Assembly (NCBI RefSeq): GCF_003334305.1
Contig: NZ_QOWS01000017.1
Reading direction: 5' to 3' (one strand)
Source: Escherichia coli
Lineage (GTDB): Bacteria > Pseudomonadota > Gammaproteobacteria > Enterobacterales > Enterobacteriaceae
Length of the DNA stretch: 64,000 bases
Shown: positions 10,420 to 50,429 of the stretch, one piece after another
Position numbering within the stretch: position 1 is the stretch's first letter
Layout of the letters: every line of letters starts with the position of its first letter
Position numbers and translations under genes: made by a program
The notes under the pieces: generated by a model
Told to the model about the DNA's origin: nothing
Databases searched by the model: none
The model's input: only the letters and a program-made list of their open reading frames with translations

Positions 10420-10454
10420 AATGGCGTTGACATCTTCAACGCCATTATTTATTG
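10420..10454. terminator. Bidirectional intrinsic terminator between convergent eaeH and ykgA
   Basis: Stem aatggcgttga (10420-10430) / tcaacgccatt (10436-10446) with loop catct, flanked by A/T-rich runs on both sides. Confidence 0.6.
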
Positions 10455-10503
10455 AATTTCCTGACAGTAGTCTCGTTATAAATTCATTTAGATATAGCGA
10501 AAA

Positions 10504-35900: not shown

Positions 35901-36951
35901 AAACCCGAATCCAGAGCCGAACCCTAACCCGACACCTACGCCGGGTCCGGATCTGAATGTGGATAATGACCTGCGACCGGAGGCGGGTAGCTACATTGCG
36001 AACCTTGCAGCAGCGAATACAATGTTCACCACGCGTCTGCATGAGCGTCTGGGTAATACGTACTATACCGACATGGTGACGGGTGAGCAGAAACAAACCA
36101 CTATGTGGATGCGCCATGAAGGTGGTCATAATAAATGGCGTGATGGCAGCGGCCAGCTGAAAACCCAAAGCAATCGCTATGTTCTGCAACTGGGAGGCGA
36201 TGTCGCGCAGTGGAGCCAAAACGGCAGCGACAGCTGGCATGTTGGGGTCATGGCGGGATATGGCAACAGCGACAGCAAAACCATTTCCTCGCGAACCGGT
36301 TATCGTGCAAAAGCGAGTGTGAACGGATATAGCACCGGCCTCTATGCCACCTGGTATGCCGATGACGAGTCGCGTAATGGCGCGTATCTCGACAGTTGGG
36401 CGCAGTACAGCTGGTTTGATAACACAGTGAAAGGGGATGACTTACAAAGTGAATCCTATAAATCAAAAGGATTTACCGCTTCACTGGAAGCTGGATACAA
36501 ACACAAATTAGCTGAATTTAATGGCAGCCAGGGAACGCGTAATGAATGGTATGTTCAGCCGCAAGCACAGGTTACCTGGATGGGAGTCAAAGCCGATAAG
36601 CACCGCGAAAGCAACGGAACCCTCGTTCATAGCAACGGTGATGGCAATGTTCAAACCCGACTTGGCGTAAAAACCTGGCTGAAGAGCCACCATAAAATGG
36701 ATGACGGTAAATCCCGCGAGTTCCAGCCGTTTGTAGAAGTGAACTGGCTGCATAACAGTAAGGATTTCAGCACCAGTATGGATGGCGTGTCCGTCACTCA
36801 GGATGGAGCCCGAAATATTGCTGAGATAAAAACCGGGGTGGAAGGACAGCTAAATGCCAACCTGAATGTCTGGGGGAATGTGGGCGTTCAGGTTGCCGAT
36901 AGGGGATATAATGACACCTCTGCAATGGTTGGCATTAAGTGGCAATTCTGA
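32968..36951 (+). CDS. ehaA: AIDA-I-type autotransporter adhesin EhaA, 1327 aa
   Basis: Extended signal peptide region (MNKIYRLKWNRSRNCWSVCSELGSR...), long repetitive passenger, Pro-rich linker (PEPDPMPNPEPNPNPEPNPNPTPTPGP) and C-terminal beta-barrel ending ...MVGIKWQF; locus directly after betT. Start placed at the Met 22 codons into the track ORF. Confidence 0.75.
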   Translation: MNKIYRLKWNRSRNCWSVCSELGSRVKGKKSRAVLISAISLYSSLVFADDVIVNQDKAIDFGKENQSIDYRITVTDNANLVINTTDTSRPRLTLASGGGLDITGGKVTINGPLNFLLKGTGFLNVSNAGSELYADDLYESNSGMRHDQGYFNVSNGGKIHVKGTSRLTYTQGNVSGEGSQVNAGTFFMGVYGGYGGNQFLSVNNGGEVNAREHISLGYYDQRSDTTLVVSDGGKISAPKISLSTNSELALGAQEGSAAKAAGIIDAEKIEFVWAKTSDKKITLNHTDKNATISADIVSGSEGLGYINALNGTTYLTGDNSAFSGKVKIEQNGALGITKNIGTAEINNRGKLHLKADDSMTFANKISGNGTISIDSGTVALTGNNYAFSGYIDVASGAVAVISEDKNIGRADLDVDGKLQINANKDWVFDNDLQGRGIVEINMGNHEFSFDEFAYTDWFQGSLAFQNTTFNLEKNAEFLQRGGITAGQGSLVTVGKGAHSISTLGFSGGTVDFGALTAGAQMTEGTVNVSKTLDLRGEGVIQVSDSDVVSSVSRDIDSALSLTEVDDGNSTIKLVDAQGAEVLGDAGNLQLQDKNGQILSSSAQRDIQQNGQKAAVGTYDYRLTSGVNNDGLYIGYGLTQLDLHATDSDALVLSSNGKSENAADLSAKITGSGDLAFSSQKGQTVSLSNKDNDYTGVTDLRSGTLLLNNDNVLGNTHELRLAAETELDMNGHSQTVGTLNGSADSLLSLNGGSLTVTNGGTSTGSLTGSGELNIQGGTLDIAGDNSNLTANVNIANSANVLVSHAQGLGSANVENNGTLALNNSAEKRAAASVNYTLGGNLTNNGTLMTGMSGQQAGNVLVVKGNYHGNNGQLVMNTVLNGDDSVTDKLVVEGDTSGTTAVTVNNAGGTGAKTLNGIELIHVDGKSEGEFVQAGRIVAGAYDYTLARGQGANSGNWYLTSGSDSPELQPEPDPMPNPEPNPNPEPNPNPTPTPGPDLNVDNDLRPEAGSYIANLAAANTMFTTRLHERLGNTYYTDMVTGEQKQTTMWMRHEGGHNKWRDGSGQLKTQSNRYVLQLGGDVAQWSQNGSDSWHVGVMAGYGNSDSKTISSRTGYRAKASVNGYSTGLYATWYADDESRNGAYLDSWAQYSWFDNTVKGDDLQSESYKSKGFTASLEAGYKHKLAEFNGSQGTRNEWYVQPQAQVTWMGVKADKHRESNGTLVHSNGDGNVQTRLGVKTWLKSHHKMDDGKSREFQPFVEVNWLHNSKDFSTSMDGVSVTQDGARNIAEIKTGVEGQLNANLNVWGNVGVQVADRGYNDTSAMVGIKWQF

Positions 36952-36973
36952 TCTGAATAATGAGTAAAAGGAG

Positions 36974-37018
36974 AGAGAGCCGAACGGGAGATAATTCGGC
37001 TCTCTGTGTCATTTTCTT
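36974..37018 (+). terminator. Intrinsic terminator downstream of ehaA
   Basis: Stem agagagccgaa (36974-36984) / ttcggctctct (36995-37005) followed by a T-rich run (gtgtcattttcttg). Confidence 0.6.
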
Positions 37019-37092
37019 GCAGCCAGCTTTATCAGTCAGAGTGAAGACTCGCAGATTTAGCTGGCGCACAAGATTTAATCAAGGTGTGTTCA

Positions 37093-38181
37093 ATGGCTTC
37101 GCATGATTTGAGTGTTTTTTTGGAAGAGTTCGGGGCAACGGTGAATTTGACGTTGCCTGGTATCGTGTCCGAAAAAGAACGGCTTTTACTCAAGCTGCTA
37201 ATGGAGGGAATGTCGGTTACAGAAATCTCACAGTACAGAAATCGCAGTGCAAAGACAATTTCACATCAAAAGAAGCAGCTGTATGAAAAACTAGGCATCC
37301 AGAGTGATATTACCTTCTGGCGGGATATCTTTTTTCAATATCATCCGCAAGTCATCAGTGGCACGGGAAATAAAAATAATTTTTATATCCCTGATAACCG
37401 TTGTCACCATATCGTCACGCCTGAAGCCATCAGTCTGGCGTTGGAAAACCACGAATTCAAACCGTGGATCCAACCGGTTTTCTGCGCGCAGACTGGGGTA
37501 CTGACGGGCTGTGAGGTACTTGTCCGCTGGGAACATCCACAAACGGGAATTATCCCACCGGATCAGTTTATTCCTCTGGCGGAGTCATCCGGTCTTATTG
37601 TCATAATGACCCGCCAACTGATGAAACAGACTGCGGATATTCTGATGCCGGTAAAACATTTGCTGCCGGACAATTTCCATATTGGCATCAACGTCTCGGC
37701 GGGTTGTTTTTTGGCAGCGGGATTTGAAAAAGAGTGTCTGAACCTGGTTAAGAAATTAGGTAACGATAAAATCAAGCTGGTTCTCGAGCTAACGGAACGT
37801 AATCCTATTCCGGTAACGCCAGAAGCCAGAGCGATATTTGACAGCCTTCATCAGCACAACATTACCTTTGCGCTGGATGACTTTGGTACGGGTTATGCGA
37901 CCTATCGTTACTTGCAGGCGTTCCCGGTCGATTTTATTAAGATCGATAAGTCATTTGTGCAAATGGCGAGTGTCGACGAAATCTCCGGTCATATTGTGGA
38001 CAATATTGTCGAACTAGCGCGTAAGCCTGGTCTGAGTATCGTGGCGGAAGGGGTAGAAACCCAGGAGCAGGCGGATTTAATGATCGGTAAAGGCGTTCAC
38101 TTTTTGCAGGGCTATTTGTACTCTCCGCCAGTACCGGGTAATAAATTTATCTCTGAATGGGTAATGAAAGCAGGTGGTTGA
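37093..38181 (+). CDS. pdeL: PdeL (YahA) c-di-GMP phosphodiesterase with LuxR-type HTH and EAL domain, 362 aa
   Basis: N-terminal LuxR helix-turn-helix (LLMEGMSVTEISQYRNRSAKTISHQKKQLYEKLGI) and C-terminal EAL domain (ELTERNP, DDFGTGYATYRYL); start taken at the ATG at 37093. Confidence 0.9.
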   Translation: MASHDLSVFLEEFGATVNLTLPGIVSEKERLLLKLLMEGMSVTEISQYRNRSAKTISHQKKQLYEKLGIQSDITFWRDIFFQYHPQVISGTGNKNNFYIPDNRCHHIVTPEAISLALENHEFKPWIQPVFCAQTGVLTGCEVLVRWEHPQTGIIPPDQFIPLAESSGLIVIMTRQLMKQTADILMPVKHLLPDNFHIGINVSAGCFLAAGFEKECLNLVKKLGNDKIKLVLELTERNPIPVTPEARAIFDSLHQHNITFALDDFGTGYATYRYLQAFPVDFIKIDKSFVQMASVDEISGHIVDNIVELARKPGLSIVAEGVETQEQADLMIGKGVHFLQGYLYSPPVPGNKFISEWVMKAGG

Positions 38182-38222: not shown

Positions 38223-39155
38223 TTAATTCTCCCGATGCAGTAAATCCTGATAGATCCCCGTTAATATGCCATTTGGCGCAAATTGTTTTTTAATCCACTG
38301 CGTCACCTGACCCGTAGCAGAATGCTGAGTCGCCAGTAACATGCGCGAATCCTGGCGCGGATTATGGATTTGTCGGGTAACCAGCAGGGATTGCGTCATC
38401 GCCTCACGGACCATGTAATCCGGCAAAAAACCAATTCCTTCACCTAAAATCTGGCACTGACATTTGGTGTTGAAATCTGGCACCAGAATTGACTCCTGCC
38501 CGTGCAGCAACCAGCCCACTTTTTTATTAATCGTATGCGCGGTGTCCTCCACCATAATATTAGGGTAGAGACGCAGTTGGCTTTCGGCGATGGGTTCCGG
38601 CACAAAGGCTAACGGGTGATCCGGGGCGATAGCAAAAGCCCAGCGAATCGCGCCAATTTCAGTGTAATCAATACCGCCGCCGTCCAGTAGTGTATCGGGT
38701 GCGCCGATGGCGATATTGGCCTGATTATTAATAATCGCATCCCAGACGCCGTTATACACTTCGGTGGTGACGGTAATCTGGCAGGTAGGAAACTGCTTTT
38801 TCAGCACCTGTAACAAGCGTGCGGTGTGTTTGGGCGTATAAAGCAGCTGATTAATACAAATGCGCACACGTGCTTCTATGCCCTGCGAAATAGTATCGAT
38901 ACTGCGTTTGATGGCGTGAAAATCATTCAGCAGGTCGGTAGCTTTGCGGAAAAAATAACGCCCGGACTCCGTTAACTCAATGCTGCGGGTACTGCGAGTG
39001 AACAGCACCACATCCAGCCCCGTCTCCATACGCTTGATGGTGTAGCTAATGGCGGAAGTGGTTAAACCCAACTCTTCTGCGGCTTTACTGAAGCTGCCAA
39101 AACGCGCAGCGGTAGTAAATGCCAACAGATTCTCTTCGGTAAAAATTGAGTTCAT
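38223..39155 (-). CDS. yahB: YahB LysR-family transcriptional regulator, 310 aa
   Basis: LysR N-terminal helix-turn-helix (FTTAARFGSFSKAAEELGLTTSAISYTIKRME); divergent from the yahD operon. Confidence 0.85.
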   Translation of the reverse strand: MNSIFTEENLLAFTTAARFGSFSKAAEELGLTTSAISYTIKRMETGLDVVLFTRSTRSIELTESGRYFFRKATDLLNDFHAIKRSIDTISQGIEARVRICINQLLYTPKHTARLLQVLKKQFPTCQITVTTEVYNGVWDAIINNQANIAIGAPDTLLDGGGIDYTEIGAIRWAFAIAPDHPLAFVPEPIAESQLRLYPNIMVEDTAHTINKKVGWLLHGQESILVPDFNTKCQCQILGEGIGFLPDYMVREAMTQSLLVTRQIHNPRQDSRMLLATQHSATGQVTQWIKKQFAPNGILTGIYQDLLHREN

Positions 39156-39246
39156 TAAACCATTCTCGCCATTATCTACTATGAATTTCTCCAGCTATGA
39201 CTGTAGAGGTATCGGTTAAAGATAGATAATCATTTTTGAATAACTT

Positions 39247-39744
39247 TTAATACCCGTCGCGTTTAGTCGTCGCTTCGCTTAATTTTTGTCCACCATATTC
39301 TGAAATTATCCCCACGCAGTTACCCGCCAGAAAACCCAGTAACGTCACCGTCCAGTTCATCCCGCTGGCAAAAAACAGCGTCATGCCGAGAAAGCCACCG
39401 GGAATAAAGGACAGTAACCAGAAACGCCCTTGCCAGACCACTACCGCCGAGAAGGGTACGGTAGTAATTACGCTCGCCCAGAACGCGGACAGTCCACTTA
39501 CAGAGGCCAGCCAACCGGCAGCCAGCGCGGCGAAAAATGCCCACACCATCCCGGAATAATTAACCGCCAGACTTCTGATAAACCCCGATTTACCGCCGCC
39601 TGCGGCATAAAAACTGCAAAAGGCGACGAAGCCAATGGTTCCTAATAATTCCCATCCCTGAGAGAGCCCGACATGTGAAGACACTAACTGCCAAAGCCCT
39701 GCACAAATACCGACGGTGACACCCGTTGCCGTGAGTCCGTTCAT
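39247..39744 (-). CDS. yahC: YahC membrane protein, 165 aa
   Basis: Polytopic hydrophobic protein; K-12 order yahB-yahC. Confidence 0.8.
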   Translation of the reverse strand: MNGLTATGVTVGICAGLWQLVSSHVGLSQGWELLGTIGFVAFCSFYAAGGGKSGFIRSLAVNYSGMVWAFFAALAAGWLASVSGLSAFWASVITTVPFSAVVVWQGRFWLLSFIPGGFLGMTLFFASGMNWTVTLLGFLAGNCVGIISEYGGQKLSEATTKRDGY

Positions 39745-40001
39745 CTTGTTCCCCTCTGGTTAGACATGGACGAAAGCTACTCTTACATGTGCAGACTATA
39801 GAGAAATAAAACCTGATTGAGTGAAAGGGTATCGGGTCAAAGAAACAAATATTGCACTACCGCACACTGCGAAAAGATTGTTGAACATCATTCAACAAAA
39901 AGGCGAAATACAGCGAATTAAATTTAAGCGGGTTCTTTTATCAGATTATCGTTGCTATTCTCAATTCATCGAAAACAGCCACAAAAACCAGGGGAATGTG
40001 A

Positions 40002-40607
40002 ATGAGTATAAAAAATCTACCTGCCGACTATTTATTGGCTGCACAACAGGGTGATATCGATAAAGTAAAAACCTGCCTTGCGCTGGGTGTCGATATTAAT
40101 ACCTGCGATCGTCAGGGGAAAACGGCAATTACGCTGGCAAGTTTATATCAGCAATATGCTTGCGTTCAGGCATTAATTGATGCCGGAGCGGATATTAATA
40201 AGCAAGATCATACCTGTTTAAATCCTTTTTTAATTAGCTGTCTGAACGATGATTTAACGCTACTACGAATTATTTTACCGGCTAAACCCGATCTTAATTG
40301 CGTAACCCGTTTTGGCGGTGTCGGCCTGACGCCTGCCTGTGAAAAAGGCCATTTAAGTATTGTAAAAGAGCTTTTGGCGCATACGGAGATTAACGTTAAC
40401 CAGACCAACCATGTAGGCTGGACGCCGCTACTGGAAGCGATTGTGCTTAATGATGGTGGTATTAAACAGCAGGCGATTGTGCAGTTATTGCTGGAACACG
40501 GTGCCAGCCCGCATCTGACCGATAAATATGGCAAAACGCCACTGGAACTGGCGCGGGAACGGGGCTTTGAAGAGATTGCGCAGTTACTGATTGCCGCAGG
40601 TGCATAA
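40002..40607 (+). CDS. yahD: YahD ankyrin-repeat protein, 201 aa
   Basis: Ankyrin repeats (GKTAITLASLYQQYACVQALIDAGADIN...; GWTPLLEAIV...LLLEHGASP). Confidence 0.85.
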   Translation: MSIKNLPADYLLAAQQGDIDKVKTCLALGVDINTCDRQGKTAITLASLYQQYACVQALIDAGADINKQDHTCLNPFLISCLNDDLTLLRIILPAKPDLNCVTRFGGVGLTPACEKGHLSIVKELLAHTEINVNQTNHVGWTPLLEAIVLNDGGIKQQAIVQLLLEHGASPHLTDKYGKTPLELARERGFEEIAQLLIAAGA

Positions 40608-40646
40608 ACCGGGAGGCTTGCTATCAACACACCAGAAAGACGGTGT

Positions 40647-41510
40647 GTGTGGGCGCTAACTGCGGATGCGGATTTTCTGGCGCAGCGGGGGCAAGGACAG
40701 GTTGAACAGGTCTTTGCCAGAGCGGTAAATATCGCACTCCCGGCTCGCCAGCAGTTGCTGACGCTGCTTTGTGAAGAGTACGACAATGCGCCAAACAGTT
40801 GTCGGTTGGCACTCACTCACTTTGATGATCTGTTCCGGCATGGTGATAAGGTTCAGTTTGACGATCAAGGTATTACGGTTGGTCAACATCTTCATATAGA
40901 GATGAGTCGTTGTCGGCGTTGGCTGTCCCCAACCTTGCAAATGACCGCTGTGAATTTTCACCTTATCGCCTGGCTACAGTGGCACGACATTATTCATCAG
41001 CACCTGGGGGAAAATGAAACCCTGTTTAATTATCGCGGCGATAATCCGTTTTATCAGGCGTTAAATAAAGAACTACATATTAAACGACGGGCAGTTATTC
41101 AGGCAGTAAACGAAAAACAAAATATCGCCGCAGCGGTCGCCAGTATGATTGGGTTAGGGATTGGCCTTACGCCATCAGCCGACGATTATTTAACAGGTCT
41201 GGCGCTTATTTTATTTATTCCCGGGCATCCGTCGGAAAAATACAAAGAGGAATTTTATCTCGGTATGCAGCGCGGCAGAAATAACACCACATTATTAAGT
41301 GCTATAACGCTGGAAGCCGCATTACAACAACGTTGCCGGGAAAATATTCATCGTTTTATTCACAACATTATTTATGACATCCCTGGGAACGCAACTCAGG
41401 CAATAGAAAAAATTAAACATATTGGCTCCAGTTCCGGCTGCGACATGCTGTATGGCATGGCCGATGGTTGTGCGCTGAGCCAAACCTACGGAGGGAATTA
41501 TGTCAGTTAA
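40647..41510 (+). CDS. yahE: YahE (DUF2877-type) protein, 287 aa
   Basis: 287-aa ORF whose end overlaps the yahF start by 11 nt; family assignment from recalled annotation. Confidence 0.8.
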   Translation: MWALTADADFLAQRGQGQVEQVFARAVNIALPARQQLLTLLCEEYDNAPNSCRLALTHFDDLFRHGDKVQFDDQGITVGQHLHIEMSRCRRWLSPTLQMTAVNFHLIAWLQWHDIIHQHLGENETLFNYRGDNPFYQALNKELHIKRRAVIQAVNEKQNIAAAVASMIGLGIGLTPSADDYLTGLALILFIPGHPSEKYKEEFYLGMQRGRNNTTLLSAITLEAALQQRCRENIHRFIHNIIYDIPGNATQAIEKIKHIGSSSGCDMLYGMADGCALSQTYGGNYVS

Positions 41511-43047
41511 AATAGTCATTAAACCGAATACCTATTTTGATTCTGTCTCGCTGATGTCTATCTCCACGCGTGCAAATAAACTCGACGGCGTCGAGCAGGC
41601 ATTTGTGGCGATGGCGACCGAAATGAACAAAGGTGTACTGAAAAATTTAGGACTGCTGACGCCGGAGCTGGAACAGGCGAAAAACGGCGACCTGATGATT
41701 GTCATCAACGGCAAAGCGGGCGCGGACAACGAACAGTTGCTGGTGGAGATTGAAGAACTGTTCAACACCAAAGCGCAAAGCGGCTCGCATGAGGCGCGTT
41801 ACGCCACTATTGCCAGCGCCAAAAAGCATATCCCGGAAAGTAACCTGGCGGTGATTTCGGTCAACGGTCTGTTTGCCGCTCGCGAAGCGCGTCAGGCGCT
41901 GCAAAACGATCTCAACGTGATGCTGTTTTCCGATAACGTCTCAGTTGAAGATGAATTGGCGCTCAAGCAACTGGCCCACGAAAAAGGGCTGCTGATGATG
42001 GGGCCAGACTGTGGCACGGCGATTATTAACGGCGCGGCGCTCTGTTTTGGTAACGCCGTGCGTCGCGGCAACATCGGTATTGTTGGCGCATCCGGCACCG
42101 GCAGCCAGGAGCTGAGCGTCCGCATTCATGAATTTGGCGGCGGCGTTTCGCAACTGATTGGCACCGGCGGGCGCGACCTGAGCGAGAAAATCGGCGGCCT
42201 GATGATGCTCGACGCCATCGGCATGCTGGAAAACGATCCGCAAACTGAAATCATTGTGCTTATCTCCAAACCGCCCGCGCCTGCGGTGGCCCGCAAAGTG
42301 CTGGAACGCGCGCGCGCCTGCCGCAAGCCGGTGGTGGTCTGTTTCCTCGGTCGTGGCGAAACGCCAGTGGATGAGCAGGGGCTACAGTTTGCCCGCGGCA
42401 GCAAAGAGGCGGCATTGAAAGCGGTGATGCTCTCCGGCGTGAAACAGGAACATCTCGACCTGCATACGCTGAACCAGCCGTTGATTGCTGACGTACGTGC
42501 TCGCCTGCAACCGCAGCAGAAGTACATTCGTGGCCTGTTCTGTGGCGGCACGCTGTGTGACGAAACCATGTTCGCGGTGATGGAAAAACACGGCGATGTC
42601 TACAGCAACATTCAGCCCGATCCGGAATTCCGCCTGCAAGATATCAACCGTAGCATCAAACACACCTTCCTCGACTTTGGCGATGACGACTTCACCAACG
42701 GCAAGCCGCATCCAATGATTGACCCCACCAACCGCATCAGTCGCTTGATCGAAGAGGCGCGCGATCCAGAAGTGGCGGTGATCGTGATGGATTTTGTGCT
42801 CGGATTTGGATCGCATGAAGATCCGGTCGGCTCCACCATTGAGGCGATCAAAGAAGCGAAAGCGATCGCCGCTGCCGAAGGCCGTGAGTTGATCATTCTC
42901 GCCTATGTGCTGGGCACCGATCTTGATACGCCATCATTAGAACAACAAAGCCAGATGCTGCTTGATGCCGGAGTGATTCTGGCGAGCAGCAGCACCAATA
43001 CCGGATTGCTGGCGCGTGAATTTATCTGCAAAGGGGAGGAAGCCTGA
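41500..43047 (+). CDS. yahF: YahF, FdrA-like protein with succinyl-CoA-synthetase-alpha-like CoA-binding fold, 515 aa
   Basis: 515-aa ORF with Gly-rich nucleotide/CoA-binding segments (GIVGASGTGSQE, MMGPDCGT); family assignment from recalled annotation. Confidence 0.85.
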   Translation: MSVKIVIKPNTYFDSVSLMSISTRANKLDGVEQAFVAMATEMNKGVLKNLGLLTPELEQAKNGDLMIVINGKAGADNEQLLVEIEELFNTKAQSGSHEARYATIASAKKHIPESNLAVISVNGLFAAREARQALQNDLNVMLFSDNVSVEDELALKQLAHEKGLLMMGPDCGTAIINGAALCFGNAVRRGNIGIVGASGTGSQELSVRIHEFGGGVSQLIGTGGRDLSEKIGGLMMLDAIGMLENDPQTEIIVLISKPPAPAVARKVLERARACRKPVVVCFLGRGETPVDEQGLQFARGSKEAALKAVMLSGVKQEHLDLHTLNQPLIADVRARLQPQQKYIRGLFCGGTLCDETMFAVMEKHGDVYSNIQPDPEFRLQDINRSIKHTFLDFGDDDFTNGKPHPMIDPTNRISRLIEEARDPEVAVIVMDFVLGFGSHEDPVGSTIEAIKEAKAIAAAEGRELIILAYVLGTDLDTPSLEQQSQMLLDAGVILASSSTNTGLLAREFICKGEEA

Positions 43048-44465
43048 TGAGCCAGTCACTGTTTAGCCAACCATTGAACGTTATTAACGTCGGCATCGCC
43101 ATGTTTAGCGATGATCTGAAAAAGCAGCATGTAGAAGTGACTCAACTCGACTGGACGCCGCCGGGGCAGGGCAATATGCAGGTGGTGCAGGCGCTGGATA
43201 ACATTGCCGATTCGCCGCTGGCAGACAAAATCGCCGCCGCTAACCAGCAGGCGCTGGAGCGCATTATCCAGTCGCATCCGGTGCTGATTGGTTTTGATCA
43301 GGCGATTAACGTGGTGCCGGGCATGACGCCGAAAACCATTCTTCACGCCGGGCCGCCGATCACCTGGGAAAAAATGTGCGGCGCGATGAAAGGCGCGGTC
43401 ACCGGGGCGTTGGTGTTCGAAGGGCTGGCGAAAGATCTCGATGAGGCGACTGAACTGGCGGCCTCCGGGGAGATCACCTTCTCGCCGTGCCACGAACACG
43501 ACTGCGTGGGATCGATGGCGGGCGTTACCTCGGCCTCGATGTTTATGCACATCGTGAAAAACAAAACCTACGGCAACATCGCTTATACCAATATGAGCGA
43601 GCAGATGGCGAAGATTTTGCGTATGGGTGCCAACGATCAGAGCGTGATCGACCGCCTCAACTGGATGCGCGATGTGCAGGGGCCAATGCTGCGCGACGCG
43701 ATGAAAATTATCGGTGAGATCGATCTGCGCTTAATGCTGGCGCAGGCGCTGCATATGGGCGATGAGTGCCATAACCGCAATAACGCCGGGACGACGCTGC
43801 TGATTCAGGCACTGACGCCGGGGATCATTCAGGCAGGCTATTCCGTCGAGCAACAGCGCGAAGTGTTCGAGTTTGTCGCCAGCAGCGACTACTTCTCCGG
43901 CCCGACGTGGATGGCGATGTGTAAAGCGGCGATGGATGCGGCGCACGGCATCGAATACAGCACCGTGGTCACCACCATGGCGCGTAACGGCGTCGAGTTC
44001 GGCCTGCGGGTCAGCGGCCTGCCGGGGCAGTGGTTTACCGGCCCAGCGCAGCAGGTCATCGGCCCGATGTTTGCTGGTTATAAGCCGGAAGATTCGGGGC
44101 TGGATATCGGCGACAGCGCCATCACAGAAACCTACGGTATTGGCGGGTTTGCCATGGCGACCGCGCCTGCAATCGTCGCACTGGTGGGCGGCACGGTGGA
44201 AGAGGCTATCGATTTCTCCCGTCAGATGCGCGAAATCACCCTTGGCGAAAACCCCAACGTCACCATTCCGCTGCTCGGTTTTATGGGCGTGCCGTCGGCA
44301 ATCGACATCACCCGCGTGGGTAGCAGCGGCATTCTGCCGGTGATCAACACCGCCATCGCCCATAAAGATGCGGGCGTCGGCATGATTGGCGCGGGCATTG
44401 TGCATCCACCATTCGCCTGCTTCGAGAAAGCCATTCTCGGCTGGTGCGAACGTTACGGCGTCTGA
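43047..44465 (+). CDS. yahG: YahG (DUF1116-type) protein, 472 aa
   Basis: Start ATG overlaps the yahF stop (ATGA); 472-aa soluble protein; family assignment from recalled annotation. Confidence 0.85.
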   Translation: MSQSLFSQPLNVINVGIAMFSDDLKKQHVEVTQLDWTPPGQGNMQVVQALDNIADSPLADKIAAANQQALERIIQSHPVLIGFDQAINVVPGMTPKTILHAGPPITWEKMCGAMKGAVTGALVFEGLAKDLDEATELAASGEITFSPCHEHDCVGSMAGVTSASMFMHIVKNKTYGNIAYTNMSEQMAKILRMGANDQSVIDRLNWMRDVQGPMLRDAMKIIGEIDLRLMLAQALHMGDECHNRNNAGTTLLIQALTPGIIQAGYSVEQQREVFEFVASSDYFSGPTWMAMCKAAMDAAHGIEYSTVVTTMARNGVEFGLRVSGLPGQWFTGPAQQVIGPMFAGYKPEDSGLDIGDSAITETYGIGGFAMATAPAIVALVGGTVEEAIDFSRQMREITLGENPNVTIPLLGFMGVPSAIDITRVGSSGILPVINTAIAHKDAGVGMIGAGIVHPPFACFEKAILGWCERYGV

Positions 44466-44469
44466 CTTA

Positions 44470-44585
44470 CATGTTTATGCCGGATGCGGTGTGAACGCCT
44501 TATCCGGCCTACGGATGGCCCGAGAATTGTAGGCCTGATAAGCGTAGCGCATCAGGCAGTCTGGCGTTGGTCATAACCTAATCAC
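44470..44585. repeat. REP elements between yahG and yahI
   Basis: Imperfect palindromic units gccggatgcggtg...cttatccggcctac and gtaggcctgataagcgtagcgcatcaggc typical of E. coli REP sequences. Confidence 0.75.
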
Positions 44586-44607
44586 CCTCTGTAGCGGACA
44601 TAACAAC

Positions 44608-45558
44608 ATGAAAGAGCTTGTGGTCGTTGCCATTGGTGGCAACAGCATTATCAAAGATAACGCCAGCCAGTCGATTGAGCATCAGGCGGAGGCGGTGAAA
44701 GCCGTGGCCGATACGGTGCTGGAAATGCTGGCTTCCGATTACGACATTGTGCTGACCCACGGTAACGGGCCGCAGGTCGGGCTGGATTTACGCCGTGCGG
44801 AGATTGCCCACGAGCGCGAAGGGCTGCCCTTAACGCCGCTGGCGAACTGTGTGGCAGATACGCAGGGCGGCATCGGCTATCTGATCCAACAGGCGCTGAA
44901 TAACCGGCTGGCGCGTCACGGCGAGAAAAAAGCCGTCACCGTGGTAACTCAGGTGGAAGTGGATAAAAACGATCCAGGTTTTGCCCATCCCACCAAGCCC
45001 ATTGGTGCATTCTTCAGTGAAAGCCAGCGTGACAAACTACAAAAGGCAAACCCTGACTGGTGTTTTGTTGAAGATGCCGGACGGGGCTATCGCCGCGTGG
45101 TCGCCTCGCCGGAACCGAAACGTATTGTCGAAGCACCCGCCATTAAGGCGCTGATCCAACAAGGTTTTGTCGTAATTGGCGCGGGCGGCGGTGGAATTCC
45201 GGTAGTGCGTACTGAAGCGGGGGATTACCAAAGCGTGGACGCGGTTATTGACAAAGATCTCTCTACCGCGCTGCTGGCCCGTGAAATTCACGCCGACATT
45301 CTGGTGATCACCACCGGCGTCGAAAAAGTCTGTATCCACTTTGGTAAACCGCAGCAGCAGGCGCTGGATCGGGTGGATATTGCCACCATGACTCGCTATA
45401 TGCAGGAAGGGCATTTTCCGCCCGGCAGCATGTTGCCAAAAATCATCGCCAGCCTGACGTTCCTGGAGCAGGGCGGCAAAGAAGTGATTATCACCACGCC
45501 GGAATGCCTGCCTGCGGCGCTGCGCGGTGAAACGGGCACCCATATTATTAAAACGTAA
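44608..45558 (+). CDS. yahI: YahI carbamate kinase-like protein, 316 aa
   Basis: Amino-acid kinase family motifs (VVAIGGNSI, THGNGPQVG, FVVIGAGGGGIPV). Confidence 0.85.
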   Translation: MKELVVVAIGGNSIIKDNASQSIEHQAEAVKAVADTVLEMLASDYDIVLTHGNGPQVGLDLRRAEIAHEREGLPLTPLANCVADTQGGIGYLIQQALNNRLARHGEKKAVTVVTQVEVDKNDPGFAHPTKPIGAFFSESQRDKLQKANPDWCFVEDAGRGYRRVVASPEPKRIVEAPAIKALIQQGFVVIGAGGGGIPVVRTEAGDYQSVDAVIDKDLSTALLAREIHADILVITTGVEKVCIHFGKPQQQALDRVDIATMTRYMQEGHFPPGSMLPKIIASLTFLEQGGKEVIITTPECLPAALRGETGTHIIKT

Positions 45559-45567
45559 GGACGTAGG

Positions 45568-46950
45568 ATGAAAGAAAGCAATAGCCGCCGTGAATTTCTG
45601 AGCCAGAGCGGTAAGATGGTCACCGCCGCCGCGCTGTTTGGTACCTCTGTGCCGCTCGCCCATGCGGCGGTAGCTGGCACCCTAAACTGCGAAGCGAACA
45701 ACACCATGAAAATCACTGACCCGCATTACTATCTCGATAACGTGCTGCTGGAAACCGGTTTTGACTACGAAAACGGTGTGGCGGTGCAGACCCGCACGGC
45801 GCGCCAGACCGTGGAGATTCAGGACGGCAAAATTGTCGCCCTGCGCGAGAACAAGCAGCATCCGGACGCCACGCTGCCGCACTATGACGCTGGCGGTAAG
45901 TTGATGCTACCCACCACTCGCGACATGCATATTCATCTCGACAAAACCTTCTACGGCGGGCCGTGGCGCTCGCTCAATCGTCCGGCAGGCACCACTATCC
46001 AGGACATGATCAAACTCGAGCAGAAAATGCTGCCGGAGTTACAACCGTATACGCAGGAGCGGGCGGAAAAACTGATCGATCTATTGCAGTCGAAAGGCAC
46101 CACCATTGCCCGCAGCCACTGCAATATCGAACCGGTTTCCGGCCTAAAAAATCTGCAAAATTTGCAGGCGGTGCTGGCGCGGCGTCAGGCGGGCTTCGAG
46201 TGTGAAATCGTCGCCTTCCCGCAGCACGGTTTGCTGCTGTCGAAATCGGAACCCTTAATGCGCGAAGCGATGCAGGCGGGTGCGCATTACGTCGGCGGGC
46301 TGGACCCGACCAGTGTTGATGGCGCGATGGAAAAATCCCTCGACACCATGTTTCAGATTGCGCTGGACTACGACAAAGGTGTCGATATTCACCTGCACGA
46401 AACCACTCCGTCGGGCGTGGCAGCCATCAATTATATGGTTGAAACGGTAGAGAAAACGCCGCAACTGAAAGGTAAGTTGACCATCAGCCACGCCTTTGCG
46501 CTGGCTACGCTCAACGAACAACAGGTCGATGCGCTGGCGAATCGGATGGCGGCGCAGCGAATTTCTATCGCCTCGACGGTGCCGATTGGCACGCTGCATA
46601 TGCCGCTCAAACAGTTGCACGACAAAGGCGTAAAAGTGATGACTGGCACTGACAGCGTTATCGACCACTGGTCGCCTTATGGTCTGGGCGACATGCTGGA
46701 AAAAGCCAATCTCTACGCGCAGCTCTATATTCGTCCTAACGAACAGAACCTCTCCCGTTCGCTGTTTCTAGCCACTGGCGATGTATTGCCGCTGAATGAA
46801 AAAGGCGAGCGTGTATGGCCAAAAGCGCAGGATGATGCCAGCTTTGTGCTGGTGGACGCCTCCTGTTCCGCCGAGGCGGTGGCGCGTATCTCGCCGAGAA
46901 CCGCAACGTTCCATAAAGGGCAACTGGTGTGGGGGAGTGTGGCAGGTTGA
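45568..46950 (+). CDS. yahJ: YahJ amidohydrolase-superfamily deaminase with twin-arginine (Tat) signal peptide, 460 aa
   Basis: N-terminal SRREFLSQSGKMVTAAALFGTSVPLAHA Tat-type signal; metal-dependent amidohydrolase motifs (HIHLDKT, DIHLHET). Confidence 0.85.
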   Translation: MKESNSRREFLSQSGKMVTAAALFGTSVPLAHAAVAGTLNCEANNTMKITDPHYYLDNVLLETGFDYENGVAVQTRTARQTVEIQDGKIVALRENKQHPDATLPHYDAGGKLMLPTTRDMHIHLDKTFYGGPWRSLNRPAGTTIQDMIKLEQKMLPELQPYTQERAEKLIDLLQSKGTTIARSHCNIEPVSGLKNLQNLQAVLARRQAGFECEIVAFPQHGLLLSKSEPLMREAMQAGAHYVGGLDPTSVDGAMEKSLDTMFQIALDYDKGVDIHLHETTPSGVAAINYMVETVEKTPQLKGKLTISHAFALATLNEQQVDALANRMAAQRISIASTVPIGTLHMPLKQLHDKGVKVMTGTDSVIDHWSPYGLGDMLEKANLYAQLYIRPNEQNLSRSLFLATGDVLPLNEKGERVWPKAQDDASFVLVDASCSAEAVARISPRTATFHKGQLVWGSVAG

Positions 46951-47248
46951 TGCGCATTTGAAACGCCTGCAACGGTGAATTGTAAGAGATTTAAGCCCCA
47001 GGGAGTGGGGCGGGAATGGTTTGCTAATGAATGATCCTGAACTTTATAATCTCGCGGCATAATTTCCAGGGGATTATTTGAGAGAAATACACAAAAGTGA
47101 GTTTTAACAAAGGTATTTATCAGGCCATAAATGTGACCTGCTTCGGATAAAAAAGATTCAGTATCGAAAAACCAATGATACTCTTGCTGATGGTTACCAA
47201 CAGTAATTAAGATGTGATTTGTTTTTCCGTAATCGCAAAAATATTGCC

Positions 47249-47659
47249 ATGACCATAAAAGAAAAATTCTCACAAAAATATCCCCATGCTTCCTTTTGTA
47301 CTTTTGGCGATTCAGCAGCGTTGGCCGATCACCTCGCAACGTTGATTGCGACTGGTGTTAAAACAGCTTCCTGTGGTTCGCTGGCGGGATGTATTGAAGA
47401 CAACGCATTTCCGATGATTGGTGAGTATAAGATTGTAGAAAATAGCCGTGGTGAGCCTGTATGTGTTATCAGAGTGATTGGCCTGCATTTACTGCGCTTT
47501 TCTGATGTCACCGTGGAGCTTGCCCGTAAGGAAGGTGAAGGTGACCTCAGTCTTGAATATTGGCGTAATGAACACCGTCGTTTTTTCCAGGCAGAAGGAA
47601 GCTATTCACCAGAAATGGACGTTATATTTGAAGAATATGCCCTTATTGACGTTGTGTAG
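47249..47659 (+). CDS. ASCH-domain protein (about 136 aa)
   Basis: Small beta-barrel ASCH-like protein; start chosen at MTIKEKF, though the track ORF begins 10 codons earlier. Confidence 0.55.
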   Translation: MTIKEKFSQKYPHASFCTFGDSAALADHLATLIATGVKTASCGSLAGCIEDNAFPMIGEYKIVENSRGEPVCVIRVIGLHLLRFSDVTVELARKEGEGDLSLEYWRNEHRRFFQAEGSYSPEMDVIFEEYALIDVV

Positions 47660-47909
47660 ATAACTATTTATCTACGCGAAATAAACTCACACACATAAAA
47701 TATCGCTAATTTTGTTTATTTTGCTATTTTTTACGTGATGAATGTCACACTTATTGTTGCTGCCCGTTTTGTCCATATTTATAACCATATTTTTAATAGC
47801 TGCCTGAAATAGGGCTGTTTATTCTGCATAAAAATATTCGAAAATTCTTATTCTCTCCAGCGCGCTAATTTGGGCGAACACTTCCTGACTACCCTGCAAT
47901 GAGGCTGAA

Positions 47910-48896
47910 ATGATGAATAAACGTTTTGTTATCAATATGGTGTCTTCGCTGTTATTAGGCGCTGCGCTAATTTCTGCGCCGCTCCAGGCAGCGGAAAAAG
48001 TCGTGGTGAATATCTCTAAAGTCGATGGTATGCCGTGGTTTAATCGCATGGGCGAAGGTGTGGTTGAGGCGGGTAACGCCTTTGGTGTTAATGCGTCACA
48101 GGTGGGGCCTTCAAGTACTGATGCTCCGCAACAAGTTAAAATTATTGAGGATTTAATCGCCCGTAAGGTTAATGCAATTACTATCGTGCCAAACGATGCC
48201 AACGTGCTGGAACCGGTATTCAAAAAAGCGCGAGATGCCGGAATTGTGGTTCTGACCAACGAATCCCCCGGTCAGCCAAGTGCTAACTGGGATATCGAAA
48301 TCATTGATAACGAAAAATTTGCCGCTGAATATGTTGAGCATATGGCGAAACGCATGGGGGGCAAGGGCGGCTATGTGATTTACGTGGGTAGTTTGACCGT
48401 GCCGCAGCATAACTTATGGGCTGACTTGCTGGTGAAATACCAGAAAGAGCATTACCCGGATATGCATGAAGTTACCCGCCGCATGCCGGTTGCCGAGAGT
48501 GTGGATGACTCACGTCGTACCACACTGGACCTGATGAAAACCTATCCTGACTTGAAAGCGGTTGTCTCCTTTGGTTCAAACGGTCCGATTGGCGCGGGAC
48601 GTGCGGTGAAAGAGAAACGGGCGAAAAATAAAGTCGCAGTCTATGGCATGATGATCCCTTCACAGGCGGCATCACTGATTAAAAGTGGTGATATCACCGA
48701 AGGGATTACTTACGATCCGGCCTCTGCAGGTTACGCACTCGCAGCCGTCGCCAGCACGTTGCTGAAGGGTGAAGAGATCAAACCTGGATTAGAAATGCAG
48801 AATCTGGGTAAGGCCGACGTAGATATGGATAAGCGAATTATCCGTTTCCATAAGGTATTACTGGTCAACAAAGACAATATCGACTCACTTTATTAA
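47910..48896 (+). CDS. ABC transporter periplasmic substrate-binding protein, LsrB/RbsB-like
   Basis: Signal peptide (…LLLGAALISAPLQA) and periplasmic binding protein type I features (NAITIVPND, DAGIVVLTNESP, VVSFGSNGPIGAGRAV). Confidence 0.75.
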   Translation: MMNKRFVINMVSSLLLGAALISAPLQAAEKVVVNISKVDGMPWFNRMGEGVVEAGNAFGVNASQVGPSSTDAPQQVKIIEDLIARKVNAITIVPNDANVLEPVFKKARDAGIVVLTNESPGQPSANWDIEIIDNEKFAAEYVEHMAKRMGGKGGYVIYVGSLTVPQHNLWADLLVKYQKEHYPDMHEVTRRMPVAESVDDSRRTTLDLMKTYPDLKAVVSFGSNGPIGAGRAVKEKRAKNKVAVYGMMIPSQAASLIKSGDITEGITYDPASAGYALAAVASTLLKGEEIKPGLEMQNLGKADVDMDKRIIRFHKVLLVNKDNIDSLY

Positions 48897-48929
48897 TCCA
48901 TTTCTTCGGGGCGAAAGCCCCGATTCTTA

Positions 48930-50429
48930 TTGCCAGGGGATGTTATGGAAACTTTCCTTTCCCTTCGTCATATCAACAAAACGTTTCATGCCACGCGAGC
49001 GCTGCGCGATGTTTCTCTCGACTTTATGTCGGGTGAAGTGCACTGCCTTGCCGGGCAAAACGGCTGTGGTAAATCGACGTTGATTAAAATTATGTCCGGT
49101 GTTTATCGCCCGGATGAGGGAGCGGAAATTACGCTTGGTGGGAAAAACTGGTCAAAGCTGACACCCGCCGCTTCGGTGGCGCAGGGGATTCAGGTGATTT
49201 ATCAGGACCTCTCTTTATTTCCTAACCTGAGTGTCTGGGAGAATATCGCCGTGAATCACTATCACCACGGTCTGTTTGTTAACCGCCGTCGTCTGCGTGA
49301 GGTGGCGCAGGCGGCAATGACCAGTATTAACGTCACATTGCCACTGGATACACTCGTTTCTGAGCTTTCAATTGCCCGCTGTCAGCTGGTAGCAATTTGC
49401 CGTGCACTGGCGCAGGACGCACGGTTGATCGTGATGGATGAACCAACCGCTTCGCTGACCCATCAGGAAGTGCAAGGGTTATTACAGGTGGTGCATCAAT
49501 TGCGGGAACGCGGGATCTGCGTGGTCTTCGTCAGTCATCGTCTGGAAGAAGTGATGGAAGTTTCCGACCGTATTTCAGTGCTGAAAGATGGTGAGCTGGT
49601 CGGGACTTTTCCGGCTGCAGAGATGACCACAAAACAACTCGGTTTCCTGATGACCGGCCAGGAGTTCGAATATCAGGTGCGAGAGTTGTGGCAGGGAAAA
49701 TCCAGCACCCCGGTGCTTGAGGTGCGTAATTTAAGTCGTCATGGGGAATATCTAAATATTAACTTGCGGGTGGAAGCGGGCGAAGTGGTATCGATTGTTG
49801 GCCTGCTTGGTGCGGGGCGCACGGAATTATGTCTGAGTCTGTTTGGTATGACCCGACCGGATGCTGGCGAGATCCTCATCAACGGCCAGCCGGTTACACT
49901 GCATAGTAACCAGGACGCTATCCGCCACGGTATTGGTTATGTTTCGGAAGATCGCATGTCGCGCGGTTTGGTGATGGCGCAATCTATTGAAGACAACATC
50001 ATTAGCACTGTTTTTCACAAGGTAAAAGATCGCTTCGGCTTTCTGAGTGAAACTAAAGTTCGTGACCTGGTGGACAGGCTAATCAAGGCATTGACCATCA
50101 AAGTCTCTGATCCTCATCTTCCGGTGAATACGCTTTCTGGTGGTAACGCGCAGCGAGTATCGATCGCCAAATGGCTGGCGATTGGGCCACGACTGTTGAT
50201 TCTCGATAGCCCGACAGTCGGTGTTGATATCGCCAACAAAGCAGGAATATACGGCATTATCAGCGATCTGGCGGCTCATGGCATTGCGGTATTGATGATC
50301 TGCGATGAAATTGAAGAAGCGTGGTATCAAAGCCACCGGATTTTGGTAATGCAAAAAGGTCAGATCACCCATAGCTTCCTGCCTGACAGCAGTTCTCAGG
50401 CCAGGATTGCGGAGGTGGTAAATGGCTGA
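48930..50429 (+). CDS. ABC transporter ATP-binding protein with two fused ATPase domains (LsrA/RbsA-like)
   Basis: Walker A GQNGCGKST, ABC signature LSGGNAQRV, and a second degenerate nucleotide-binding domain; start may be the Met at 48945. Confidence 0.8.
   Translation: MPGDVMETFLSLRHINKTFHATRALRDVSLDFMSGEVHCLAGQNGCGKSTLIKIMSGVYRPDEGAEITLGGKNWSKLTPAASVAQGIQVIYQDLSLFPNLSVWENIAVNHYHHGLFVNRRRLREVAQAAMTSINVTLPLDTLVSELSIARCQLVAICRALAQDARLIVMDEPTASLTHQEVQGLLQVVHQLRERGICVVFVSHRLEEVMEVSDRISVLKDGELVGTFPAAEMTTKQLGFLMTGQEFEYQVRELWQGKSSTPVLEVRNLSRHGEYLNINLRVEAGEVVSIVGLLGAGRTELCLSLFGMTRPDAGEILINGQPVTLHSNQDAIRHGIGYVSEDRMSRGLVMAQSIEDNIISTVFHKVKDRFGFLSETKVRDLVDRLIKALTIKVSDPHLPVNTLSGGNAQRVSIAKWLAIGPRLLILDSPTVGVDIANKAGIYGIISDLAAHGIAVLMICDEIEEAWYQSHRILVMQKGQITHSFLPDSSSQARIAEVVNG

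Follow-up and report, generated by a model that had tools for sequence, protein, structure and literature searches.

The yah locus

The DNA considered here is a stretch of 64,000 nucleotides from Escherichia coli (RefSeq assembly GCF_003334305.1, contig NZ_QOWS01000017.1), referred to below as the window, and the subject of this work is the yah locus which occupies positions 38223 to 46950 of it. The locus comprises the genes yahB and yahC on the minus strand and the operon yahDEFG-yahIJ on the plus strand, and its products include relatives of the subunits of the oxamic transcarbamylase AllFGH and of the carbamate kinase AllK of the E. coli allantoin regulon. The comparisons described below indicate that Yah forms a clade of its own within this enzyme family and that it carries components which the allantoin system lacks.

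The regulator gene yahB (38223-39155, minus strand) encodes a LysR-type protein paralogous to AllS and is divergent from the operon, and yahC (39247-39744, minus strand) encodes a small membrane protein, annotated in RefSeq as DUF1097, which may serve as a substitute carrier. A palindrome that is a candidate operator for YahB lies at 39878-39898 (no strand assigned), 5' of yahD (40002-40607, plus strand, like all the genes that follow). The latter is the conserved first gene of the operon, and its product, which matches ankyrin profiles, is a cytoplasmic ankyrin-repeat protein. Three genes for enzyme subunits come next: yahE (40647-41510, with a GTG start), of the AllH family (DUF2877); yahF (41500-43047), of the AllF/FdrA family, with a core resembling the alpha chain of succinyl-CoA synthetase; and yahG (43047-44465), of the AllG family (DUF1116), whose product is the most conserved protein of the module. 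Repetitive extragenic palindromic (REP) sequences and bacterial interspersed mosaic elements (BIMEs) fill the interval from 44466 to 44607 (no strand assigned), and the operon continues with yahI (44608-45558), which encodes a carbamate kinase family protein, and yahJ (45568-46950), which encodes an amidohydrolase of the AtzC/cytosine deaminase branch that is predicted to be exported by the twin-arginine translocation (Tat) pathway, with its signal peptide encoded at 45568-45666.

An earlier, sequence-only reading of the window had placed all eight open reading frames exactly. The window is E. coli chromosome, and the 8.7-kb yah stretch is 100% identical to several complete E. coli chromosomes, in which the genes are annotated as yahB, yahC, yahD, yahE, fdrA (yahF), yahG, yahI and yahJ. 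The 11-nucleotide overlap of yahE and yahF described in that reading was borne out when the sequence was read again, but the junction of yahF and yahG, which had been given as ATGA, is instead TGATG, with an overlap of one nucleotide.

The adjacent genes yahF and yahG are found at a coverage of at least 80% in 5040 of 5426 complete E. coli genomes (about 93%). When the genes are compared with those of E. albertii, Kluyvera and Citrobacter amalonaticus, the ratio of nonsynonymous to synonymous substitution rates (dN/dS) ranges from 0.02 to 0.07 (yahB 0.02, yahG 0.025-0.035, yahC 0.04-0.07), apart from yahE, the fastest-evolving yah gene, which has the operon's highest value, 0.22. By these measures all eight genes are under strong purifying selection, and the operon is maintained as a near-core element. 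The synonymous divergence (dS) from E. albertii is itself uneven across 38223-44465, amounting to 0.65-0.74 in yahB and yahC and only 0.18-0.25 in yahD, yahE and yahG, which suggests recombination or a mosaic history within the locus. A separate observation is that the yahF-yahG query has 119 matches on E. coli plasmids and that in 108 records the best match reaches just 60-80% identity; these may represent plasmid-borne, divergent copies of an AllF/AllG-type module.

Paralogy with the allantoin regulon

The sequence-only reading had proposed that the yah operon is a paralogue of the module of the allantoin cluster formed by fdrA, ylbE, ylbF and a carbamate kinase gene, and had held that a lack of detectable homology of YahE and YahG to YlbF and YlbE would speak against this. 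All four products match their counterparts in the K-12 allantoin cluster. In BLASTP comparisons, the homology of YahG to AllG (YlbE; 45% identity, E 1e-119) and of YahE to AllH (YlbF; 25% identity, E 2e-10) lies far beyond chance, and YahF is 39% identical to AllF (FdrA; E 1e-102). The kinase YahI is 38% identical to AllK (YbcF; E 3e-57), and the paralogy extends to the regulator, YahB being 39% identical to AllS (E 5e-73). Adjacent genes of the AllF, AllG and AllH families, which characterize AllFGH-type systems, are found in yah by BLASTP, Pfam and NCBIfam (NF004760). The orthologues carry the Pfam families AllH (PF11392), HMA_AllF_N with CoA_binding and Ligase_CoA, and AllG (PF06545), and some RefSeq records name yahE "oxamate carbamoyltransferase subunit AllH family protein". 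The bare paralogy of yah and all is already embedded in current annotation, since Pfam has renamed the families and some RefSeq records use the AllH name.

The function of the all module had been described in that reading as something merely thought to involve the conversion of a carbamoyl compound to carbamoyl phosphate and then ATP. That caution is outdated: purified AllF-AllG-AllH is an oxamic transcarbamylase that catalyses the reversible reaction of oxalurate and phosphate to oxamate and carbamoyl phosphate (2024, PMC11326118), a reaction for which allF, allG and allH are all required and in which AllH is sub-stoichiometric (PMC11326118), and YbcF/AllK is a catabolic carbamate kinase (PMC9843812). 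The yah genes are not mentioned in the AllFGH paper (PMC11326118), the AllK paper (PMC9843812), a 2025 paper on allF regulation or a 2025 review of carbamate kinase islands. A 2024 survey of the y-ome lists yahC...yahM as a cluster of uncharacterised genes, and literature searches for the yah genes, DUF1116/DUF2877, allFGH and parabanate/oxalurate returned no functional study of yah.

The two systems also differ in their surroundings. Allantoin genes of the allB, allC, allD and allE types flank allFGHK, but none of these allantoin/ureidoglycolate genes lies beside yah in the window, and none is conserved in 80 related loci.

A separate and highly conserved clade

The paralogy of YahG and AllG does not amount to orthology, because YahG is no closer to AllG (45%) than it is to other branches of the family. 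In a pairwise identity matrix, the YahG orthologues are 65-88% identical to one another from Enterobacterales to Bacillales, while the identity of these G proteins to AllG, or to any other branch compared, is only 41-52%. The E. coli protein is 76-79% identical to its Brevibacillus and Janthinobacterium orthologues and 88% identical to an Aeromonas protein, and by BLASTP it is 70% identical to PDB entry 3clq, a solved but unannotated protein of Enterococcus faecalis V583 that is itself 45% identical to AllG. The eight non-Yah G sequences in the comparison all lie at similar distances (41-57% identity) from Yah, from AllG and from each other. When 1.84 billion cluster representatives at 50% identity were searched, 3359 AllG-family proteins (E <= 0.001) were obtained, among which the whole Yah clade collapses into a single representative, all other full-length matches being at most 50% identical.

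Taken together, the comparisons show Yah to be an ancient variant in its own right, under exceptional constraint and with additional components. AllFGH is the sole member of the family with a known substrate. Since Yah is a separate and much more conserved clade, its substrate need not be oxalurate.

The E. faecalis gene for the 3clq protein (9751-11155 in the locus examined, L087) is frameshifted after an N-terminal segment of 58 amino acids, and the allH-like gene near it (7362-8054) is cut to 230 amino acids; the source of the crystallised protein may be a locus in decay.

The subunits and the evidence for a complex

The most informative evidence for a physical association of the F and G proteins comes from the way in which they are joined and divided within the family. 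Fusion proteins of AllF and AllG of about 1000 amino acids are common (P0275, P0276, P0278 and P0281), and in these a short segment, VINxG...W.P, links the two domains. The corresponding 45-residue linker segment lies at the C-terminus of AllF (residues 513-554) but at the N-terminus of YahG (residues 12-53). That a single polypeptide has been divided at two different points would be difficult to account for if F and G did not act together, and this supports the view that they form a complex. The sequence-only reading had deduced a likely complex from the tight gene overlaps; the fusions and the shifted split point argue for an F-G complex more strongly than the overlaps do.

YahF scores 492 bits on NF004760 (cut-off 433) and matches FdrA (PDB 3dmy) at E 1e-82 and the alpha chains of succinyl-CoA synthetase at E 1e-17. 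When YahF is aligned with E. coli SucD by MAFFT, an insert of about 190 amino acids takes the place of the GHAGA phosphohistidine loop, a tyrosine stands where the alignment puts the SucD histidine, and the insert carries an invariant G(K/R)PHPMIDP motif (GKPHPMIDP in YahF). The RefSeq name "acyl-CoA synthetase" is unsupported because the GHAGA loop has been lost and the insert is found in its place.

YahE carries the invariant motifs GxGxGLTPxxDD and GSSSGxD. Its AlphaFold 2 model (predicted local distance difference test score, pLDDT, 91) is a predicted fold that has no structural neighbour in the PDB. The protein is absent from the loci of the Enterobacter/Leclercia/Lelliottia clade, in which yahD abuts yahF, and from Jeotgalibaca, and it therefore seems to be dispensable in some lineages. 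The converse case is found in E. faecalis and Oceanobacillus, in which AllH is kept and the ankyrin protein is absent; every locus examined carries at least one of the two.

The ankyrin protein YahD, which had been regarded as an extension of the enzyme set, proves to be a conserved member of the module across several phyla rather than an E. coli addition. A YahD-type protein is also found in the clusters of Brevibacillus, Janthinobacterium, Aeromonas and Pasteurella, and a longer form of 374-410 amino acids that combines ankyrin and tetratricopeptide repeats is found in Trichococcus, Paenibacillus, Peribacillus, Jeotgalibaca and Bosea. Because it recurs in this way, the ankyrin protein is a true yah component, one that has no counterpart in the all system.

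The assignment of YahI as a carbamate kinase-like protein holds as far as family models can take it: the protein has a full-length match to NF009007 (650 bits against a cut-off of 266), and its score on the arcC equivalog model TIGR00746 (347.6 bits) falls slightly below the cut-off of 358.25. No yah product matches a pentein-fold deiminase family or a family with the fold of the aspartate and ornithine transcarbamylases (ATCase and OTCase) in NCBIfam or Pfam.

Composition of the module across genomes

The composition of the module was examined in a sample of 80 genome loci that contain a close relative of YahG, with the genes laid out by tblastn and clustering of open reading frames, and in 12 further contexts, nine of which were reached from YahG homologues and three from permease homologues. 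Where YahF and YahG are both found, which is the case in 82 loci, the ankyrin protein YahD is present in 81, YahB and YahI in 77 each, YahJ in 73, a membrane protein of 517 amino acids in 60, YahE in 56 and YahC in 17. The clustering revealed no further gene that is conserved beside the yah clusters, and the module is taken to be self-contained for this reason. Across phyla the conserved module consists of a regulator, an ankyrin protein, the E, F and G subunits, a membrane carrier, a carbamate kinase and usually a deaminase. The carrier and the deaminase are exchangeable parts, and for the carrier this is non-orthologous displacement about an enzymatic core that stays fixed.

Two sets of additional neighbours were seen in Firmicutes. 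Genes for an alpha/beta-hydrolase esterase and an M20/M28 peptidase-family protein follow the yah-type clusters of Paenibacillus and Peribacillus (L089 15716-17951 and L091 14826-17238) and are 70% and 78% identical between the two; they may encode extra steps of the pathway. Genes of the RidA/L-PSP type lie near the clusters of Trichococcus, on both sides (L088 1533-1910 and 12971-14239, one of them encoding 422 amino acids), and of Brevibacillus (L003 2297-2677). They would fit an imine or enamine product, yet they are inconsistently present.

The carrier

The 517-residue protein is encoded between yahG and yahI in 60 loci (for example, L027 11537-13087). It has no match in Pfam or NCBIfam and belongs to a small family, of which a search of 5.8 billion proteins gave 324 at E <= 1e-5. 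Across phyla its members are 63-89% identical to a Citrobacter-type reference (alignment A3), and the three homologues examined from Pasteurella, Bosea and Brevibacillus all adjoin a yah cluster. The source annotations of the homologues read "xanthine permease" or "AGZA family". The only structural matches of its predicted model (pLDDT 79) are carriers of the 7+7 UraA fold, namely SVCT1, UraA, UapA, AZG1/2 and SLC26/SulP. A tie at the level of sequence to NCS2 or NCS1 carriers was sought and rejected, since hhalign gave no match to YbbY, AllW or Xan_ur_permease, and PF00860 is touched by just one of 25 homologues. Because the protein is placed by fold search alone, carriers of nucleobases and of anions are inseparable as its likely relatives.

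In the window the slot of this permease gene is occupied by the 142 nucleotides of REP/BIME repeats between yahG and yahI, in which REP palindromes are visible. This region has been named "yahH, filled with REP23 sites" (PMC11551758). The spacer takes up the exact position that the permease gene has in the 60 related loci, and it looks like a deletion scar that was filled by REP elements. A few E. coli records also hold a copy of the permease, 94% identical.

YahC is confined to the approximately 20 loci that lack the permease, in Escherichia, Kluyvera, Raoultella, Klebsiella, Pseudocitrobacter and C. amalonaticus, and the two are never found together. The sequence-only reading had YahC completing the system as a membrane protein, and the mutual exclusion agrees with this in that YahC behaves as a stand-in for the dedicated permease. 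Carriers of other kinds are found elsewhere. In Brevibacillus, Paenibacillus and Jeotgalibaca there is an NCS1 carrier that is closest to the allantoin permease (435 bits, below the cut-off), other Firmicutes have an unrelated membrane protein of 393 amino acids, and one Brevibacillus holds both the NCS1 carrier and the 517-residue permease. Homology among YahC, the permease and the 393-residue protein was considered and discarded, the hhalign probabilities being below 1%; because these proteins are mutually unrelated, the alternative carriers represent displacement and not divergence. The carrier of the module therefore seems to be replaceable yet always present.

YahJ and other deaminases

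The N-terminus of YahJ, MKESNSRREFLSQSGKMVTAAALFGTSVPLAHA, is a canonical twin-arginine signal (SRREFLS...AHA), in which an S/T-R-R-x-F-L motif, a hydrophobic stretch and an AxA cleavage site can be recognised. The description of YahJ as an amidohydrolase with a clear Tat signal is upheld by the motif itself, by its conservation in orthologues and by the subfamily match. The twin-arginine motif occurs in Pasteurella and in all enterobacterial and Aeromonas orthologues whose N-terminus was recovered (it is blank for some), and YahJ is among the E. coli proteins tabulated as predicted Tat substrates in PMC7549933. YahJ scores 715 bits on NF005312 (subfamily PRK06846; cut-off 447), and since that model covers residues 49-459, the first 48 residues, which include the Tat signal, are extra. 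Among PDB entries YahJ is closest to 6nbo and AtzC (E 7e-45) and then to cytosine deaminase, and the metal-site motifs align with those of 6nbo and AtzC: HxH (HIHLDK), IHLHE and TDSxxD (TDSVIDHW). A yahJ deletion mutant of extraintestinal pathogenic E. coli has a competitive index of 0.70 in mice (PMC7549933).

The deaminase varies as widely as the carrier does. Cytoplasmic paralogues that are 36-44% identical to YahJ number two or three in Trichococcus, Oceanobacillus and Peribacillus; Brevibacillus, Paenibacillus and Jeotgalibaca have instead a 150-residue protein with the cytidine deaminase (CDA) fold, which is encoded beside the NCS1 carrier; and Janthinobacterium and one Aeromonas cluster have no deaminase. 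Because these last two do without it, the deaminase is regarded as a feeder step and not as part of the core.

Regulation

The best NCBIfam match of YahB is AllS, at 268 bits, which is below the equivalog cut-off of 372, and PunR is second; the earlier description of YahB as a divergent LysR-type regulator thus stands and can be extended to paralogy with AllS. The regulators of the module are AllS/PunR-like LysR proteins in most Proteobacteria and of the PucR type in Firmicutes and Bosea, which speaks for a link with purines and ureides. The palindrome TTGTTGAA-N5-TTCAACAA, 124 nucleotides upstream of yahD, occurs once in the window, with none expected from shuffled sequences. A box with at most two mismatches is kept some 118-135 nucleotides 5' of yahD in 59 of 83 loci, with a spacer that varies. 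It is accordingly put forward as a candidate YahB box. A promoter and terminator scan of the locus produced fewer promoter-like matches than shuffled sequence does and no informative terminator.

Proposed function and alternatives

The reading that is on balance probable is that yahB, yahC and yahDEFG-yahIJ constitute a self-contained, ATP-yielding catabolic module, which follows the same scheme as the arginine and agmatine deiminase pathways, except that an AllFGH-type transcarbamylase would act in it on an acyl-ureide derived from a nucleobase. Exported YahJ would hydrolytically deaminate an amino- or imino-substituted, nucleobase-like heterocycle in the periplasm, and the product would be taken up through YahC in Escherichia and through the dedicated UraA-fold permease in most other species. 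By homology to the characterised enzyme, YahF and YahG would then use phosphate to release the terminal carbamoyl group of this product as carbamoyl phosphate, with YahE and the ankyrin protein YahD possibly serving as accessory or scaffold subunits in the cleavage. YahI, judged from its family membership, would transfer the phosphate to ADP and so produce ATP, ammonia and carbon dioxide, and YahB would turn the operon on through the conserved palindrome upstream of yahD. The substrate of the Yah enzyme is probably an N-acyl-urea related to oxalurate rather than oxalurate from allantoin, because Yah has a tightly conserved clade, carriers and deaminases of its own; a nucleobase-derived amino-heterocycle that yields such an N-acyl-urea is suggested because the types of deaminase, carrier and regulator all point there. 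The sequence-only reading had likewise interpreted the locus as a catabolic system for a ureido compound. All parts of that interpretation which can be tested computationally held. Sequence analysis shows the family memberships, the separation of the clade, the Tat motif, the conservation of the module, the patterns of displacement and the selection on the genes, while it is inferred which way material flows through the pathway, what YahC does, that YahD and YahE act as scaffolds and to what class of compound the substrate belongs.

Several considerations weigh against this proposal. The literature found contains no yah phenotype beyond the weak competitive defect of the yahJ mutant. The roles of the subunits may differ from those in AllFGH, because AllH was reported to be required there and two lineages lack YahE. 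YahC resembles no known carrier, so that its putative transport role is deduced solely from the pattern of mutual exclusion, and the presence of the permease is no proof of a heterocyclic substrate because proteins with the UraA/SLC26 fold transport small anions, oxalate among them, as well. A periplasmic deaminase could, moreover, act on an exported product and not on an incoming substrate.

Two alternatives retain the chemistry of the family and differ in the substrate. Yah could be a second oxamic transcarbamylase, with both the chemistry and the substrate of AllFGH, that serves external oxalurate or parabanic acid (such as might come from the oxidation of urate or guanine), in which case YahJ would produce parabanate or oxalurate from an analogue bearing an imino or amino group. 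All of the subunits do come from the same families as AllFGH, and classical reports describe oxamic transcarbamylase in Streptococcus faecalis grown on oxalurate and its induction by parabanic acid in a Streptococcus. Parabanic acid, an analogue of hydantoin, would also fit the allantoin-permease-like NCS1 carrier, and PMC5703782 describes its hydrolysis to oxalurate at neutral pH. The presence of a Yah-clade allG gene, that of the 3clq protein, in E. faecalis V583 would be the natural bridge by which oxalurate could be assigned to the Yah clade, but this bridge was dropped: the locus looks damaged, with its allG-like gene frameshifted, its allH-like gene truncated and no carbamate kinase nearby, and the link of the clade to the measured activity is for that reason not established. 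The maintenance in E. coli of a clade that is 65-88% identical, beside AllFGH, suggests another specificity, and the two or three YahJ-like hydrolases in each Bacillales cluster exceed the needs of such a route, so this alternative is considered unlikely, though it is the main rival. A bolder alternative is that the Yah enzyme itself opens a ring, with phosphate attacking a cyclic acyl-urea (parabanate, or a base that resembles hydantoin, uracil or xanthine) at its urea carbonyl; the N-substituted carbamoyl phosphate would then yield ATP through YahI, and the resulting carbamate would lose carbon dioxide spontaneously. It would account for a minimal cluster which has the ankyrin protein, E, F and G, a nucleobase-type carrier and the kinase but no ring-opening hydrolase, and it accords with the carriers, which are of nucleobase, hydantoin or allantoin type, with the deaminases, which are of types that act on ring amidines, and with the position of YahI in its own carbamate kinase subfamily just under the arcC equivalog cut-off. 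Established chemistry suggests that the step would be the same, since the leaving group of oxalurate is also an amide nitrogen. There is, however, no known precedent, and the one relative that has been characterised takes a terminal ureide with an open chain; genes for ring-opening enzymes could lie elsewhere, some substrates, parabanate for one, open spontaneously, and the YahJ-like paralogues of Firmicutes could themselves be ring openers. Ring opening by Yah is accordingly thought improbable. If true, it would constitute an oxygen-independent, energy-conserving opening of a nucleobase ring and would explain the minimal cluster content.

The remaining alternatives depart further from the proposed catabolic module. 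The notion that the module runs in the synthetic direction, with YahI making carbamoyl phosphate and YahEFG carbamoylating an amide (for instance in modification or detoxification), draws on the fact that the AllFGH reaction is readily reversible and was assayed in that direction. It is highly improbable, given that a carrier, deaminases and PucR- or AllS-like regulators are the make-up of a catabolic cluster, that the paralogue encoded by the all genes is catabolic and that the synthesis of carbamoyl phosphate by carbamate kinase is thermodynamically unfavourable. It is a shade less plausible still that the Escherichia operon is a silent remnant left after loss of the permease and its replacement by REP elements. 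The repeats in the permease slot and a searched literature that shows no phenotype or inducing condition could be read in this way, but the eight open reading frames are intact and under strong purifying selection, yahF-yahG is present in 93% of complete genomes, yahC consistently accompanies the loss of the permease in six genera, and the yahJ mutant shows a small fitness defect in mice. Least credible of all is the idea that YahF, like succinyl-CoA synthetase, is a synthetase of acyl-CoA and that the operon activates an acid with CoA. Its basis is the RefSeq product name "acyl-CoA synthetase FdrA", the CoA_binding and Ligase_CoA domains and the SucD-type similarity at E 1e-17; against it, AllF belongs to a transcarbamylase whose assay mixtures, as described, contained neither CoA nor a nucleotide, the SucD GHAGA loop is not kept in YahF, which has the insert of about 190 amino acids there, and the locus encodes no ATP-grasp beta subunit.

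Flanking genes

The sequence-only reading had included an ATP-binding cassette (ABC) importer immediately downstream. The importer is indeed annotated next to yahJ, but it was rejected as a component of the system and is considered unrelated to yah, because it is not conserved beside yah clusters anywhere else. According to the annotation of strain A7, the segment from 47219 to 52346, between yahJ and yahK, holds an open reading frame with an ASCH domain and a four-gene importer of the sugar or autoinducer-2 (AI-2) type. In the K-12 chromosome yahK presumably follows yahJ directly. On the 5' side of yahB, 32902-38181 contains the gene for the autotransporter adhesin EhaA (ehaA) and the EAL-domain gene pdeL, and the bet operon lies farther upstream; this is ordinary E. 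coli context and is unrelated to yah.

Comparison with known systems and significance

The nearest known system is AllFGH/AllK/AllS of the E. coli allantoin regulon (Kim and Kim 2022, 2024), with which Yah shares the three subunit families, an adjacent carbamate kinase, a paralogous LysR activator and, presumably, the phosphorolysis of an N-acyl-urea to carbamoyl phosphate and thence ATP. The gene order differs, being F-G-H-K in the allantoin system and H-F-G-K in Yah, as does the location of the linker segment, which is on AllF in the one and on YahG in the other. In addition, Yah has an ankyrin subunit, a carrier and a deaminase of its own, does not lie beside allantoin genes and can lose YahE. 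The arginine and agmatine deiminase pathways are established examples of the same sequence of steps, in which deamination gives a ureido compound whose phosphorolysis feeds a carbamate kinase that makes ATP, with a dedicated carrier. The kinase is the sole homologous part, however, because Yah has an AllFGH-type transcarbamylase in place of one with the ATCase/OTCase fold, and its deaminase is an amidohydrolase or CDA-fold protein, not a pentein, and is predicted to be periplasmic in gamma-proteobacteria.

A third carbamate kinase context in E. coli, the ygeW-ygeX-ygeY-hyuA-yqeA island associated with anaerobic urate breakdown, is similar in that it is linked to purines and combines a transcarbamylase-like protein with a kinase paralogue. 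YgeW, unlike the Yah enzyme, has the classical transcarbamylase fold, the island has no FdrA, AllG or AllH, and it is discussed in recent reviews in which yah is not. The closest relatives of YahJ with solved structures are AtzC (N-isopropylammelide isopropylaminohydrolase) and CodA, which share the HxHxDK, IHLHE and TDSxxD motifs with it; YahJ differs from them in its Tat signal and in belonging to its own subfamily, PRK06846, whose members cluster with yah genes. Homologues of allFGHK also lie beside genes for biuret and triuret hydrolases in comammox Nitrospira and ammonia-oxidising archaea (PMC12625717), where ureide scavenging and carriers of nucleobases or nucleosides are likewise involved. 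There the partners are the isochorismatase-like BiuH and TrtA, the authors assume oxalurate, and no ankyrin protein or YahJ is reported (PMC12625717).

The paralogy recorded in the databases and the reference enzyme were known already; what the comparison shows in addition is the separation of the clade, the extra components and the patterns of displacement. Yah is an uncharacterised, near-core operon in the best-studied bacterium, and AllFGH was recognised as an enzyme only in 2024, so that its large family is barely explored. As the most conserved clade of this family, in a genetically tractable host, Yah is the best next target. The comparative pattern predicts a path from deaminase to carrier to phosphorolysis to ATP and leads to a few classes of candidate substrate, namely parabanate, hydantoin, pyrimidine or triazine-dione rings that bear amino or imino groups, together with the corresponding ureides. 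Once the substrate is found, E. coli would have a third route to ATP by way of carbamoyl phosphate, and the finding could explain the mild in vivo defect of the yahJ mutant and assign roles to the ankyrin protein, to DUF1097 and to a permease family that has no Pfam entry.

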